A stretch of DNA of 64,000 bases from positions 32,346 through 96,345 of IMG/VR virus record IMGVR_UViG_3300042566_000599, one strand, 5' to 3'. Below are positions 1-7,931 of the stretch, in pieces. The notes under the pieces were generated by a model, which did no database searches, was not told the DNA's origin, and worked only from the letters and a program-made list of their open reading frames with translations. This DNA comes from a virus. Numbering within the stretch: position 1 is the first letter of the stretch; every line of letters starts with the position of its first letter. The translations under genes and the position numbers were made by a program.

Positions 1-2
1 GC

Positions 3-281
3 ATTAAGAAGTTACTTAGTGGGAAAGTTCCGACTTCAACAATCAACCAAATCATAAAGATTGTGGATTCCGACATTCGCACCTTGACCTTCGACCACCT
101 ACACACAAGGGGCGATAAGGAACACACAATCGCTAACATGATTCGTGACATTCAACCATTACACAAGATTAAAAAAGAAATACAAAAGTGTGTAGTGCGT
201 TGTCATAACTGCCACGACATTATTACTGTGAAGCGTGCTAAAAATTGGAGATACCACGCCCACAAACAAGTAACTAAATAA
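3..281 (+). CDS. HNH-like endonuclease/Zn-finger protein, 5'-truncated by window edge
   Basis: Frame open from base 3; FDH...IANM...EIQKCVVRCHNCH motif typical of phage HNH-like proteins. Confidence 0.6.
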   Translation: MKKLLSGKVPTSTINQIIKIVDSDIRTLTFDHLHTRGDKEHTIANMIRDIQPLHKIKKEIQKCVVRCHNCHDIITVKRAKNWRYHAHKQVTK

Positions 282-285
282 ATGT

Positions 286-433
286 ATCTAGTGGGGGTTA
301 AAGCGAGTGACCTTTGTAGGTTTCTATTCATTCCCTACAAACTGTTCAAGGCTAAGAACAACCATGACCTCTCATGGGTCTTTGTATTACTCCTTTCAAC
401 CATGAAAGCGAGTTGTATCTGCCCCCACTAGAT
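286..433 (+). ncRNA. Candidate structured RNA / 5' leader
   Basis: 12-bp closing stem ATCTAGTGGGGG (286-297)/CCCCCACTAGAT (422-433) enclosing four hairpins; fills the intergenic gap. Confidence 0.55.
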
Positions 434-457
434 TCCCAATTAAGAAAGGAAGTAGAA

Positions 458-1093
458 ATGCCAAACTGGTGTTTTAACGCTCTTAACATCTCAGTTGAGA
501 GTCCAAAACAATTACAAAAGTTAATGCAAGCAATTACAAATGATTCAGAACAACCTTTCGACTTCAATCGAATAATTCCAATACCTGAAGAACTCGCTAA
601 CACTTCATCACCTAATAAAGATAACGCTGATGAAATGAAAAAGAAGTATGGGTTCTCTGATTGGTATGACTGGCGAGTTACTAACTGGGGAACTAAATGG
701 AACGCCTCTGATGTTGAACTCGACATTGAAACATCACAACAGATTCGTATTCGATTCAATACCGCTTGGTCACCACCAACACCAGTTATTACAAAGATTG
801 CAGAGAAGTTTCCTTTTGCTTTCATAACTTTGGATTGGGAAGAAGAAGGTGGTTACTACGGCAACTCTGAGTACGAGAACGGCAGACTCACTTTAGAACA
901 CGAAGGCGAAATGGATTGTGACTATCGCTGGGAGAAGTGGGGGGAGTGTGCTGAGTGGTGCGAACAATGTGGTGTTTGTGATTGCGAAGTTTGTAATTGC
1001 GAGTATCGCTCACAACAAACGCTTTGTGAAAGATGTAATGACGGCGAACATGGACAACTAAAAGGAGAAACAGATGAACCAACGACAGACTGA
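458..1093 (+). CDS. DUF1281/YubB ferredoxin-like domain protein with Cys-rich C-terminus
   Basis: MPNWCFN start after AGAAAGGA RBS; WYDWRVTNWGTKW and FNTAWSPP motifs. Confidence 0.75.
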   Translation: MPNWCFNALNISVESPKQLQKLMQAITNDSEQPFDFNRIIPIPEELANTSSPNKDNADEMKKKYGFSDWYDWRVTNWGTKWNASDVELDIETSQQIRIRFNTAWSPPTPVITKIAEKFPFAFITLDWEEEGGYYGNSEYENGRLTLEHEGEMDCDYRWEKWGECAEWCEQCGVCDCEVCNCEYRSQQTLCERCNDGEHGQLKGETDEPTTD

Positions 1094-1962: not shown

Positions 1963-2063
1963 AGTGTAACGATTGTGGCGCAAAAGTTACTTACGAGAGT
2001 ATGACGGAAGAAGGCAACTGGTCATGCTCTGATTGTGGTTGGGATACAGGGGTGAGTGACTAA
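1959..2063 (+). CDS. 34-aa Zn-ribbon microprotein (not in ORF track)
   Basis: MKCNDCGAKVTYESMTEEGNWSCSDCGWDTGVSD; ATGA and TAATG overlaps with neighbours. Confidence 0.7.
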   Translation: MKCNDCGAKVTYESMTEEGNWSCSDCGWDTGVSD

Positions 2064-2506
2064 TGGTTAATACATTCCTTCCGTATCCCGACTTTGTTCA
2101 ATCTGCACAAGCACTCGATTACAAACGACTTGGCAAACAACGAGTAGAAGCGTGGCAGATACTTCGTGCGCTTCGTGGAGAGACAAAAGGTTGGCGTAAT
2201 CACCCAGCAACTAACTTGTGGCGTGGTCACGAGAAGTTACTTTGTGAATACGGAATCGCAGTCTGTGATGAATGGATTGCTCGTGGTTACAAAGACACAA
2301 TGCGTGAGAGATTCGTTGCAATACATTCGACTTACCCTGATTGTGAAATACCAAAATGGTTTGGTAATACAAACTTTCATAATTCACATCAGAGTAATCT
2401 CAATCGCAAAGATTCGACTTACTATCACTTCAACATCACAAACGATTTACCTTATTTGTGGTTCGACAATGAAACAGAACAACTCTATGAAAAGGAATCA
2501 AAGTGA
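2063..2506 (+). CDS. MSMEG_6728-like / pyrimidine-dimer DNA glycosylase (T4 endonuclease V-like)
   Basis: TFLPYPDF...LDYKRLGKQRVEAWQIL...GWRNHPA...W..RGYKDT signature. Confidence 0.8.
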   Translation: MVNTFLPYPDFVQSAQALDYKRLGKQRVEAWQILRALRGETKGWRNHPATNLWRGHEKLLCEYGIAVCDEWIARGYKDTMRERFVAIHSTYPDCEIPKWFGNTNFHNSHQSNLNRKDSTYYHFNITNDLPYLWFDNETEQLYEKESK

Positions 2507-5167: not shown

Positions 5168-5907
5168 AAGTTTTTGTTTATTAAAAACCTCACTTGTTCC
5201 ATGACCTTAGTTCTTTTTGCAGTCAAATATCTTTCTTTTAATGGTTTGAAAGAAGAATATGTATTTGGAGCAGTACTAATTTCTTCTTCTATGTTTTTTA
5301 AAACAGTTGAGTTTATGTAACGTTTAAAAACAATTTTTTTATTAGTCATAAACTCTACATAAAATAAAGGGTCTCCTTCATTAAAGACCATTGTTCTAGA
5401 AGTTTTTGGTAAAAAGTAATTTAAATGATAAGGCCTATACCAAGAACCAATATCAAACTCTCCTGCAGTTAATATAGCCCCAGGTGCAGGAGTATGAGTG
5501 GGAAAATAAGGAGCAGTAAACTTAGCAATTAGGGGCTCATCAGCAACAAAGTTCCACGACAAATCTATGCTTATGTCATCGTAATTTTCGATAGAAGATG
5601 GTCTTGGTTTATAAGAATCAATTAAACAAGTTGAGTCTAGAGTGTCAAACATGACCTTATACTCATCAATGTTCTTAGGGATGTTTGCTTGAAAAGACAC
5701 TTCATTATAAACAGCATAAACGTTCTTTAACAAAGAGGTTGTCGCTGGACATGCAAATATTGTTTTTGGACCGCTATCACTTACTTTTTGTTTTCTAAGT
5801 GCATTAAACACATGCACTGGTTCTGCATAAAGCAGAGTTCTAGAGAATGCCTCTGGGTTATAACCAGAGGCAGTCCAATAGATTGTTATTGTGTCTTTGT
5901 CCTTCAC
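5158..5907 (-). CDS. Hypothetical protein, divergent dUTPase-fold-like family
   Basis: CPA...GEFDIGSWYRP...FNEGDPLFYVEF pattern parallels 22469 and 51529. Confidence 0.5.
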   Translation of the reverse strand: MKDKDTITIYWTASGYNPEAFSRTLLYAEPVHVFNALRKQKVSDSGPKTIFACPATTSLLKNVYAVYNEVSFQANIPKNIDEYKVMFDTLDSTCLIDSYKPRPSSIENYDDISIDLSWNFVADEPLIAKFTAPYFPTHTPAPGAILTAGEFDIGSWYRPYHLNYFLPKTSRTMVFNEGDPLFYVEFMTNKKIVFKRYINSTVLKNIEEEISTAPNTYSSFKPLKERYLTAKRTKVMEQVRFLINKNLVE

Positions 5908-7931
5908 ACGTTGTCCTTAATGAGTTTTATTTCGCAAGCATCGGTTGTGCAGTACGCTTCTCCGATTGCATCTGCTGCCATTCCAGCATACACTCCGCTG
6001 AAATCAATTGGAAAAACTTCCATTGTTGCTGCTTCATACGCTTCTTTAGTTGTTTGGGTGTACGGCATTTGGGGATAAACATGGTTGCCACTTGGTAAAA
6101 ACGAGACTGTCTTTAACTGACCGTCATACATGTGCAACACAGTACCGATAGCAGAAGACTCTGTCTCTGGGTCAAAACTAATAGTGACACTTACAGAGTT
6201 GTCTGACCAGTATCTCTGGGCTGTAGCAGCAAGTGCCATTTTTTCATAAACACTTACCTCTTTCTCTGAACGTATAGCATCTGACTTTACAGGGAAGAAT
6301 ACGACAGAAGTTGTATCTGGAGATTCGTTTGCTGGTTCAACTTTGTAATTAGCCATTTTGAAGAGCGGCAACATAGGGTCATTGTTAGCAAAACGAATAG
6401 CACGCATGAAGTACTCGCCGCCAACAGACCAGTGAACTCCAGGAGATTCTCCAGCAAGAATAGAGACTGTTCCACTTGGCTTTACAGTCGTAGTCTTTAT
6501 TGATTCACGAATACCCAACCACTCAGAATAGTTTTTATCGTAGTTTTGAATAATGGAATAACCTTTATCCATCCACTCACGTAAGGTTGGCAAACCTTTG
6601 TTATCTGCAAAGTTTGCGACTCCAGAGATAGATGTTCCAATGCGACGATTGCGCTGCATGATGGCGTTGGTCTCTTCCCAGTGAGTAGGAAGAAGCGTTA
6701 CAGTCTTTGCATAGAGATATGCAAACTTTAGGGTGCGCAGGAAGTCTTCCAAGTTCTCGTGGCGATTTAAGTAGGTTTCAACCAAAGTACAGCACTCATA
6801 CGATTCAAGAGACTGTTCGGCACAGGGGTTGTAGCCAGCAGCACGCCAATCTTTATTGTTTGCAGGGTCAGCAAGCCGACCGTACTTACGAGTAACATCC
6901 ATCCAGATAACTCCAGGCTCACCATTACGAGCAATGCCGTCAATGATTGGGGTCAAGTCTTGGCCAACAGATACCTCAACAGAGTTGTTGGACATCCAGC
7001 CGTGAGTCATACGCTCTGGATACTTGTCGTAGTTCTTTAAATTTAAGAAGTCTTCATCGTCAAGTCGTCCCATTAACAACTCGGCAGAACGACGAACATT
7101 TCCAGACACAACACAAACACCAATCATGTTTCCAATGTCTGCAATGTCTCTACGAGTTAACTTTTGACCTGCACGACCGTTAAACATCGAACGAATCAAG
7201 TCGTGAAGTTTGATTAGTGGGTCTGGTCCTGCTGCGGTTCCACCGAACGTCTTGATTGGTTCGCCTGCTGGACGGACTGCTTCGTAATTAAATACTGGAT
7301 TCTTCGAATCTGGTCGTAAGTAGGAATTGATGAGGGCTGCGGTCGATTCGACCCAGCCTTCTCTGGTGTCTGGGATGTCATACGGTTGGTCTCCTTGTGG
7401 TGCGTAGATAGTGAACTCTTTGTCTGCGCCCTTATCATCAAAGCCAACTCCAACTCCAAGCATTGATGCTTCCATTAAGAATGCGAATGGTTTTGCTGGG
7501 TCTGTCTTTGTCATGGAACCAGTTGATACAAATGCACAGTTCTGTAGGGCTGCTGAATTTCGTTGAACATTCACTAGAGGAGTGCCCATAACCCACAGTC
7601 CGCGTCCTGGCGGTGTCCACTTCAAGTTAAATAGTCGGTCAAAGGCTTCTTTAGCAGAGGCTGCTGCTTTGGCGTCAGACCAAGGGAGTCGTTGACTTTT
7701 GGCGTGGTCCTTTTGAAGAGAGTACATACCGTTGATGACGCGTTCACATACGTCGACCCATGTCTCTTTCTGACCATCTTGCTTTAGGCGAGAATAGGTT
7801 CGAAGGAAAGTGATTTCACCAACCGAGTTTCCACCAGCATCTCGATAGCCAAACGGTGCTTTCTTGTCCTTGTACTGGGCAATAAAGTCGTCAGTTAATT
7901 TAAAAGAAAAGTAATTCATTTCCCCTACCAT
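5904..7931 (-). CDS. nrdJ: Class II (adenosylcobalamin) ribonucleoside-triphosphate reductase
   Basis: PPGRGLW, LQNC, VVSGNVRRSA, NPCAEQ, TTVKPSGT and C-terminal CTTDAC motifs. Confidence 0.95.
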   Translation of the reverse strand: MVGEMNYFSFKLTDDFIAQYKDKKAPFGYRDAGGNSVGEITFLRTYSRLKQDGQKETWVDVCERVINGMYSLQKDHAKSQRLPWSDAKAAASAKEAFDRLFNLKWTPPGRGLWVMGTPLVNVQRNSAALQNCAFVSTGSMTKTDPAKPFAFLMEASMLGVGVGFDDKGADKEFTIYAPQGDQPYDIPDTREGWVESTAALINSYLRPDSKNPVFNYEAVRPAGEPIKTFGGTAAGPDPLIKLHDLIRSMFNGRAGQKLTRRDIADIGNMIGVCVVSGNVRRSAELLMGRLDDEDFLNLKNYDKYPERMTHGWMSNNSVEVSVGQDLTPIIDGIARNGEPGVIWMDVTRKYGRLADPANNKDWRAAGYNPCAEQSLESYECCTLVETYLNRHENLEDFLRTLKFAYLYAKTVTLLPTHWEETNAIMQRNRRIGTSISGVANFADNKGLPTLREWMDKGYSIIQNYDKNYSEWLGIRESIKTTTVKPSGTVSILAGESPGVHWSVGGEYFMRAIRFANNDPMLPLFKMANYKVEPANESPDTTSVVFFPVKSDAIRSEKEVSVYEKMALAATAQRYWSDNSVSVTISFDPETESSAIGTVLHMYDGQLKTVSFLPSGNHVYPQMPYTQTTKEAYEAATMEVFPIDFSGVYAGMAADAIGEAYCTTDACEIKLIKDNV

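Follow-up and report, generated by a model that had tools for sequence, protein, structure and literature searches.

A conserved plus-strand structured RNA with a relocatable anti-Shine-Dalgarno-like strand in a gene block of freshwater viruses

Introduction

Several kinds of described RNA share features with the one reported here, a branched structured RNA of ~148 nucleotides (nt) encoded at positions 286 to 433 on the + strand of a 64,000-nt stretch of viral DNA, hereafter the window, which comprises bases 32346 to 96345 of a 96,345-bp IMG/VR virus record with direct terminal repeats (IMGVR_UViG_3300042566_000599). The riboswitches and leaders that act on translation by hiding the Shine-Dalgarno (SD) sequence, such as preQ1-II, preQ1-III, SAM-II and the actinobacterial translational T-box, resemble it in layout; each is a domain closed by a helix P1 that lies upstream of a ribosome-binding site (RBS) and holds a strand complementary to it. 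Unlike them, the window RNA has no match in Rfam, its P1 is 13 bp long, it shows no association with a ligand or gene function, its complementary strand shifts position between clades, and some members of its family are not followed by a gene. The SAM-I riboswitch aptamer is similar in combining a multi-helix junction with an internal loop made of a 3-nt bulge and tandem G·A pairs, the pattern of a kink-turn (k-turn), a geometry that can bring the terminal loop of one helix back onto the junction (PMC3651934, PMC4316175). The junction described here is three-way, however, not four-way, the SAM-I consensus is absent, and the k-turn is recognized by sequence only, with the short, non-bulged strand reduced in 11 of 39 distinct sequences.

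Small regulatory RNAs (sRNAs) with C- or CU-rich loops in Gram-positive bacteria and Actinobacteria, of the 6C and RsaE/RoxS types, also display unpaired pyrimidine-rich loops on a stable scaffold and are complementary to RBSs. In contrast to these, the RNAs of the present family lie within an operon, where no promoter was detected and a terminator is usually absent, and have a larger, branched scaffold; the Rfam 6C and RsaE models do not match the RNA. GOLLD and ROOL are likewise phage-encoded, strongly covarying and uncatalogued or of unassigned function, but the present RNAs are much smaller (about 95 to 155 nt), have another fold and are intercistronic. Finally, REP-type stabilizers and the RNase III sites of early T7 messages also fill gaps after stop codons with a long stable helix, whereas the RNA described here is branched and has conserved loops, a junction and a sequence motif.

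Few of the structured RNAs of phages have been mapped, and the culturing of phages that infect the abundant freshwater Actinobacteria has begun only recently (PMC10202952). The comparative analysis presented below strongly supports the conclusion that window 286 to 433 is one copy of a genuine, conserved and uncatalogued family of + strand structured RNAs. The family comprises at least 56 distinct sequences, nearly all of its base pairs covary, and its strand signal is clear. Its architecture is compact and testable, with a clamp that closes a three-way junction and a likely kink-turn in one arm. Conserved structured RNAs are a known class of phage RNA, to which this family is a new addition; what sets it apart is a copy of the 16S ribosomal RNA (rRNA) tail that changes place within the fold, and it is an unusual hallmark that a copy of the sequence with which the ribosome docks on mRNA is kept unpaired while it relocates within the fold.

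Homologs and covariation

Close relatives of the RNA were sought among viral contigs by means of the two flanking proteins, the stem pattern and invariant motifs. This yielded 12 distinct close copies, 78 to 88% identical, each located between an HNH endonuclease gene and a DUF1281-like gene; a pattern scan of metagenomes returned 11 stretches, two of which had new sequences (L078 and L079). When RNAalifold was run on a plain MAFFT alignment of the 12 close relatives, the consensus kept two of the helices proposed in an initial annotation of the window, called P1 and P3 below, and replaced the other proposed hairpins with P2, P4 and P5. In this fold 98.8% of the alignment cells were paired, and 13 pairs, located in four of the five helices, had changed on both sides. 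A covariance model built on the 12 close sequences (R1) detected a single copy in the 96-kb phage genome and matched ~35 further contigs with scores of 42 to 88 bits, always on the + strand. The loci for this search were fetched by way of a pyrimidine-dimer DNA glycosylase gene in the same block (window 2063 to 2506, PF03013), which served as a handle for collecting related phages and has 53 to 95% amino acid (aa) identity over more than 140 viral contigs. With a second, later model (R2) and a family-wide pattern scan the total rose to 61 matches, 56 of them distinct, with one per phage.

For the 56 distinct sequences, 96.2% of the cells were paired, compared to 37 to 44% when the partners were slid by 1 to 3 columns; changes on both sides were seen at 34 of the 42 pairs, and none of 500 shuffles attained the observed values. 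As the 56-sequence alignment had been fitted to the covariance model, independent checks were made. P1, P4 and the basal part of P2 emerged with covariation from a MAFFT-only alignment of 31 members, produced with no structural guidance; P3 and P5 were recovered from the MAFFT alignment of the close relatives, which was also made without structural guidance; and for several distant members the minimum free energy (MFE) structure of their own sequence had the consensus architecture. The initial annotation had named covariation or conservation in related phages and a folding energy better than that of shuffles among the properties whose absence would refute it. Covariation and conservation are strong, and the MFE of −57 kcal/mol is better than that of dinucleotide shuffles (−42 ± 3.9 kcal/mol for 200 shuffles; z = −3.8, with none as good). 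The reverse strand also folds well (z = −3.3), and therefore folding energy alone cannot assign the strand.

Assignment of the strand comes from the pairs themselves and from the model scores. Among the 56 distinct sequences, P1 contained 611 Watson-Crick pairs, 95 G·U pairs and no A·C pairs, and P4 contained 333, 115 and none; the combined count of 944 Watson-Crick, 210 G·U and 0 A·C leads us to conclude that the pairing has been selected in an RNA read from the + strand. The window copy was matched on the + strand only, with 163 bits for R1 and 137 bits for R2, whereas minus-strand scores were ~15 bits. The same asymmetry bears on the possibility that the element acts as DNA, whether as a mobile inverted repeat, a homing-endonuclease target or a cruciform. 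The perfect 12-bp terminal inverted repeats, the HNH endonuclease genes that adjoin the element in the window clade, and a second clamped element that comes and goes among relatives with ACTAT flanks (see below) could all be taken to suggest such a function. However, 210 G·U versus 0 A·C means that pairing has been kept on one strand only, and therefore a cruciform and a mobile inverted repeat are ruled out; moreover, the element is present in a single copy per genome at one syntenic place, its flanks have no consistent target-site duplication, most relatives lack an adjoining HNH gene, and an HNH relative in L025 has no element. We consider a DNA-level function largely refuted and extremely improbable. 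A tie between the RNA and the HNH gene was rejected as well, the upstream gene being a Zn-ribbon gene in most relatives and the HNH relative in L025 occurring without the RNA.

The initial annotation had not recognized the RNA as belonging to any known family, and database searches agreed. Rfam 15 at gathering thresholds gave no matches in the whole window or in seven relatives, and permissive Rfam scans of window 150 to 600 and of L182 1750 to 2120 gave chance-level matches only, the best being the DUF2815 motif at 15.5 bits versus a threshold of 41.2. A blastn search of 50,697 cultured phage records with the element and two high-GC relatives produced chance matches only; a pattern scan of 185,579 prokaryotic genomes, one per species, produced three matches, none of which was confirmed by the model; and a model search of 151 sampled actinobacterial genomes, from the class of the Microbacteriaceae metagenome-assembled genome G001, produced none. 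The motif could still be among the entries of a catalog that lists over 10,000 candidate viral structured RNAs (PMC10690425), the text of which refers to no WhiB, HNH or DUF1281 context. Among the sets searched, the RNA is known only from uncultured freshwater viral contigs.

Conserved and competing folds

In the conserved fold, P1 encloses a three-way junction from which two arms extend, one consisting of P2 and P3 and the other of P4, a k-turn-like internal loop and P5. All of the sequences quoted in the initial annotation were found at the positions given there. The perfect 12-bp stem of that annotation (ATCTAGTGGGGG at 286 to 297 with CCCCCACTAGAT at 422 to 433) is present and is in fact a helix of 13 bp, being extended by U298·G421 (P1, 286–298/421–433). 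Across the 56 distinct sequences 98.7 to 100% of the P1 cells were paired and 11 of the 13 pairs covaried. In the 12 close relatives pairing was 100% with five covarying pairs, and their MAFFT alignment contained six versions of P1, every one fully paired, with changes such as UAG/CUA to AGG/CCU and GGGGG/CCCCC to GAGAG/CUCUC or GAAGG/CCUUC. The P1 12-mer occurs only twice in the window.

The P2-P3 arm (303 to 352) begins with P2 (303–305/350–352 and 308–310/346–348), which covaries from C-G to U-A and has covariation at five of its six pairs family-wide. It ends with P3 (314–320/334–340, loop 321 to 333), which corresponds to the first hairpin of the initial annotation (TTTGTAGG at 313 to 320 with CCTACAAA at 334 to 341) and likewise is supported by the comparison with relatives. 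The P3 loop motif GGUU..UUCAU..CC is kept family-wide, and J1/2, J2/4, the P3 loop and the P4 core are conserved across the family. P4 (355–362/412–420, with A417 bulged and GUUGUAUCU at 412 to 420 as its 3' strand) is a long-range helix, weak and rich in G·U pairs, which was 100% paired in the 56 sequences with four covarying pairs (AA/UU to GG/CC); the sequence GAGUUGUAUCUGC is invariant among the close clade. P4 joins the 3' strand of P1 (421 to 433) without a linker, and P1 and P4 can stack coaxially into a rod of ~21 bp with the P2-P3 arm branching off between them. P5 (369–377/400–408, with a 22-nt terminal loop from 378 to 399) was identified from the MAFFT/RNAalifold consensus and from family covariation: in the 12 close relatives four pairs changed on both sides, from CAUGG/CCAUG to CAAGG/CCUUG and CGUGG/CCACG, and family-wide all eight pairs covary, the helix being variable in length and sequence.

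Between P4 and P5 lies a conserved asymmetric internal loop with a long strand CAUGAC (363 to 368) and a short strand CGA (409 to 411), in which the bulge C363–U365 is followed by G366·A411, A367·G410 and C368·C409. The k-turn consensus is a 3-nt bulge followed by tandem G·A and A·G pairs (PMC2790904), and a C at position 3b, the nucleotide present in the window's loop, is reported to let a k-turn fold with metal ions as the only aid (PMC4382518). Of 39 distinct sequences, 38 have CA(U/A)GA(C/U) as the long strand; for the short strand, (C/U/A)GA is present in 28 and UA or A in the other 11. A k-turn has its bulge and G·A pairs between a Watson-Crick C stem and an NC stem, and in the window the loop is flanked by P4 and P5. 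We regard the P4/P5 internal loop as a candidate k-turn whose sequence fits well.

The three remaining hairpins of the initial annotation (343–347/356–360, 362–367/372–377 and 389–413) were 66, 86 and 91% paired, respectively, with no compensatory change, and their strands belong to the covarying helices P2, P4 and P5. For example, where UCAUGG (372 to 377) had become ACAAGG or UCGUGG, the change was compensated in CCAUGA at 400 to 405 and not in CCAUGA at 362 to 367. The proposed closure of a junction by GACC and GGTC also failed, GGTC (377 to 380) being found only in the window and GGGC in every other sequence. The initial annotation had further proposed a switch in which three partners compete for one strand: the 9-mer AAAGCGAGT was said to occur twice, either copy being able to pair with ACTCCTTT at 389 to 396, which in turn is complementary to the RBS of the next gene. 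Both copies are present (300 to 308 and 405 to 413), as is ACTCCTTT, but the exact repeat exists only in the window; the copies are strands of conserved helices, P2 in one case and P5/k-turn/P4 in the other, and each varies with its own helix partner. The three-partner switch is therefore not supported; the ACTCCTTT strand itself is invariant in the close clade. What remains is a conserved + strand RNA that is multibranched and has an anti-SD-like strand near an RBS, with P1 and P3 as the only parts of the proposed inner anatomy that were kept.

The noted local hairpins, together with the GACC/GGTC closure and the repeated 9-mer, make up the computed MFE structure in the window, where the covarying fold is 10 kcal/mol higher, and over the family the consensus fold lies above the MFE by a median of 5.6 kcal/mol. 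For most of the close clade the predicted probability of P4 was ~0, yet this helix is paired in each of the sequences. Because P4 is conserved yet thermodynamically disfavored, we conclude that it must be stabilized by a factor outside the energy model; candidates are a k-turn, a contact of the tertiary or pseudoknot type, and a bound protein or ligand. A conserved but disfavored helix is the type of element suited to a switch, and the predicted energies make competition between folds physically possible; the alternative local hairpins show no covariation and vary between clades. One of them (CCATGA-CCTC-TCATGG, 362 to 377), a local competitor of the P4/P5 fold, was flagged together with GTCTTTGTAT as terminator-like by a consensus scan. 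A reading of it as a terminator was rejected, the stem being a weak one of 6 bp that is not conserved and the hit count being within chance. A small open reading frame (ORF) at 282 to 431 (49 aa) was also rejected; its ATG is missing in 5 of the 12 close relatives, and 1- to 2-nt indels break the frame.

A fold of this type could be an aptamer that senses a ligand or protein, as a riboswitch or a protein-binding operator, with the junction as the pocket, the k-turn folding P5 back, and the anti-SD-like strand in the P5 loop as the read-out. The junction nucleotides are conserved in a three-way junction closed by P1, the k-turn-like loop recalls those of SAM-I and other riboswitches (PMC4316175, PMC3651934), the weak but conserved P4 competes with local hairpins, and AAAG in J1/2 (300 to 303) could pair with CUUU of the P5 loop. 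However, this J1/2-to-loop pseudoknot has no covariation support, the neighboring genes vary by clade and point to no metabolite, and a downstream gene is missing from some copies. No consistent association with a ligand or with genes of one pathway was found, the downstream genes varying between clades. Switch helices, furthermore, are usually far shorter than the 13-bp P1. We regard an aptamer as quite unlikely.

The anti-Shine-Dalgarno-like strand

The hallmark of the family is an unpaired UCCUU/CUCCUUUC strand. In the window it is located in the P5 loop as ACUCCUUUC (389 to 397), which is unpaired in the conserved fold and invariant in the 12 close relatives. Most other members carry a CUCCUU(U/A) strand in the P2 arm rather than in the P5 loop: long forms have it 3' of P3, and short forms, from which P3 is missing, have it in the hairpin loop of P2. 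Strands rich in pyrimidines are found repeatedly in the P2 arm as well as in the P5 loop. UCCUU was present in 44 of the 56 distinct sequences versus 15 ± 3.4 in dinucleotide shuffles, a count that ignores relatedness, and it was mostly unpaired. The full tail of 16S rRNA is ..CACCUCCUUUCU, and the CUCCUUUC strand is identical in sequence to the 3' anti-SD tail of actinobacterial 16S rRNA. Within that tail CCUCCU is the anti-SD sequence, and a CACCU cleavage site lies 11 nt from the 3' end (PMC12274833). Since the structural position of the strand changes between clades, we take it as evidence that the strand itself is what selection keeps; a position that depends on the clade (J3/2 or the P2 loop versus the P5 loop) fits a pairing strand better than it fits a fixed tertiary contact.

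We tentatively propose that the RNA pairs with the RBS of the next gene and thereby dampens its translation. This reading is preferred because the strand at 391 to 397 (UCCUUUC) is complementary to GAAAGGA (444 to 450), close to the start codon, a complementarity to the RBS of the gene at 458 that the initial annotation had correctly identified. GAAAGGA is the SD sequence of that gene; it follows P1 at a distance of 11 nt and precedes the ATG at 458 by 7 nt. All close relatives have a comparable purine tract, and strand and SD are complementary over 7 to 10 bp. The interaction of the P5 loop with the downstream RBS was calculated at −12.8 kcal/mol, relative to a genome mean of −7.5 ± 3.4 kcal/mol. 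According to our proposal, the scaffold would present the anti-SD-like strand for pairing with purine-rich SD sequences, of which GAAAGGA would be the best-placed partner in the window phage, and the folded RNA would act in cis to restrain or gate the DUF1281-like gene at the level of translation. Occupancy of the strand would be set by the balance between the P4/k-turn/P5 fold, which would expose it, and the local hairpins, which would bury it; a binder of the conserved junction and k-turn-like loop could shift this balance. If the RNA does gate translation, it represents a novel type of control element located between cistrons.

A number of observations weigh against translational damping in cis, and we grade the case for it as weak. 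Any SD sequence is automatically complementary to an anti-SD-like strand, and the downstream RBS ranked only 28th of 410 candidate genome sites against the P5 loop. In the commonest clade the complementarity, judged by eye in the printed flanks, was only 3 to 5 bp. Covariation between strand and SD is absent, the strand being invariant, and a scan for extra covarying column pairs, including pseudoknots and loop-to-SD pairing, gave noise only. Pairing of the loop with the SD would also be a pseudoknot spanning a 13-bp helix, and the k-turn, assigned as it is from sequence alone, fits less well in 11 of 39 sequences. The neighboring genes on both sides differ between clades. Finally, five or six copies are followed by a terminator and no gene, and eight have a second element before the next gene; control of next-gene translation therefore cannot be the function of every member.

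Genomic context in relatives

The upstream stop codon was found 1 to 9 nt before the model match in nearly all members, and in the window the stop codon of the HNH gene is 4 nt upstream of P1. The upstream gene is a small Zn-ribbon gene in most members, an HNH gene in some, and another gene elsewhere. In ~39 of the 56 members an SD and a start codon follow 16 to 33 nt downstream of the RNA, whatever the next gene is: a DUF1281-like gene in the window, a helix-turn-helix (HTH) gene resembling sigma-70 region 4 in most members, and a WhiB gene in L213; in other members no gene follows. A tie to the DUF1281-like gene was rejected, R1 having found no RNA upstream of 78 distant DUF1281-like genes fetched from other phages. 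The RNA is predicted to belong to the transcript of a + strand regulatory gene block, and no promoter-like site was detected ahead of it and no terminator after it in the window.

In five or six members (L240, L289, L299, L297, L250 and probably L259) the RNA is followed by a GC-rich hairpin and a U-run, with no gene. These copies lie at the end of the + strand block and face a convergent gene homologous to window 5904 to 7931. Five of them (L240:5364–5520, L299, L297, L250 and L289) have the short form of the RNA, without P3; CCUUUC is then part of the hairpin loop of P2, and the RNA is directly followed by a strong intrinsic terminator. Conserved DNA beyond the terminator in L272 was considered as another RNA and rejected, as it is the 3' end of the convergent minus-strand gene.

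This context is what would be expected if the RNA were a free-standing, stable noncoding RNA, a module defined by its clamp that is cut from the operon transcript or forms its 3' end and acts in trans through its pyrimidine-rich loops. It could be an sRNA acting on host or phage RBSs, it could be assembled with protein into a ribonucleoprotein, or it could imitate the 3' tail of 16S rRNA and in this way titrate or decoy a factor by which the tail is recognized. The start of the RNA 1 to 9 nt after a stop codon in nearly all members, flanking genes that vary by clade, and the five or six members that end in a terminator at the end of the block without a gene are all consistent with such a role. 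In addition, conservation is higher in the loops and junction than in the stems, as it is in partner-binding RNAs, and pyrimidine-rich strands are present in both the P2 arm and the P5 loop. Actinobacterial toxins, moreover, cleave exactly the same 16S sequence, MazF-mt3 cutting the mycobacterial 16S tail at U^CCUU (PMC5408214) and MazF-mt11 being a second example (PMC12274833). However, a promoter for the RNA alone was not detected, most copies have no terminator, and the phage genome offers no standout target with extended complementarity. We consider action in trans or as a decoy possible though doubtful, and rate it only slightly lower than damping in cis; if it is correct, the RNA is a new phage route to interfere with host translation or defense.

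The decoy version can be stated more specifically: the RNA would be a structural decoy of the 16S 3' tail, carrying UCCUU/CUCCUUUC on a nuclease-resistant scaffold and soaking up or blocking a host factor that acts on the anti-SD tail. Candidate targets are a MazF-type abortive-infection toxin and a ribosome-maturation or initiation factor. The idea fits because the motif is kept while its position moves and because gene-less copies exist at operon ends. In this specific form we think it very unlikely; if true, translation would be protected or re-programmed during infection.

The position of the RNA would also suit an element for mRNA processing or stability, in which the ~21-bp P1-P4 rod serves as an RNase III-type site or as a barrier to exonucleases and thereby separates the fates of the upstream and downstream messages. 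Whether within the operon or at its end, the RNA directly follows a stop codon; it takes up the entire gap between the genes, and P1 is very stable and always fully paired. For a plain barrier, however, an invariant junction, the k-turn-like loop, the P3 loop and the UCCUU strand would be superfluous, and the terminal copies already possess a protective terminator hairpin. Processing or stability as the function thus seems unlikely to us, and damping of translation in cis remains the interpretation that we prefer for the window copy.

Eight members (L182, L184, L190, L231, L232, L251, L269 and L288) have a second element of ~140 nt between the RNA and the next gene. In L182 (1919 to 2060) this element has a 17-bp closing stem with compensatory changes and ACTAT on both flanks. 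It is missing in the close relatives L181 and L187, and no Rfam family matches it. Its appearance is that of an RNA cassette, modular and perhaps mobile, and with this second clamped element in some relatives the phage group looks rich in RNA-based regulation.

Neighboring genes

In the window the RNA lies on the + strand in an intergenic gap of 176 bases (282 to 457) between two flanking genes. The upstream gene ends at 281 (3' end at 3 to 281, + strand; full ORF L001:949–1500) and encodes an HNH endonuclease (PHROG 2255, E = 2.4e-21). It is the second of two tandem HNH endonuclease genes (221 and 183 aa, L001:287–1500), which are situated between the small Zn-ribbon gene of the window phage (L001:148–309) and the RNA and extend into window 1 to 281. 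Because the Zn-ribbon gene directly abuts the RNA in most relatives, the two HNH genes look like insertions of free-standing homing endonucleases between the Zn-ribbon gene and the RNA. The downstream gene (458 to 1093, + strand) encodes a DUF1281_C/Api92-like protein of 211 aa (Pfam PF18406, E = 3.8e-14).

No ribosomal protein S21 or L7Ae-family gene was found in the phage, and ARAGORN reported no tRNA or tmRNA genes in the window. Beyond the DUF1281-like gene lie a WhiB gene (1379 to 1714; PF02467, E = 3.7e-19) and, farther on, genes for an excisionase-like protein and a tyrosine recombinase. Phages that infect Actinobacteria are considered to be marked by WhiB (PMC10202952), and the source is therefore probably an actinobacterial freshwater phage. 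All 24 of the DNA sequencing runs that contain the stretch are lake or freshwater metagenomes, and no RNA run was listed for it.

The gene resembling sigma-70 region 4 encodes 48 to 58 aa (L193:1309–1467, with equivalents in ~25 relatives; PF04545, 23.8 bits versus a cut-off of 24.1) and shares a block with the WhiB gene; in the window phage the DUF1281-like gene takes its place. As WhiB-family proteins are reported to bind sigma region 4, the sigma-70 region 4-like protein and WhiB may work together.

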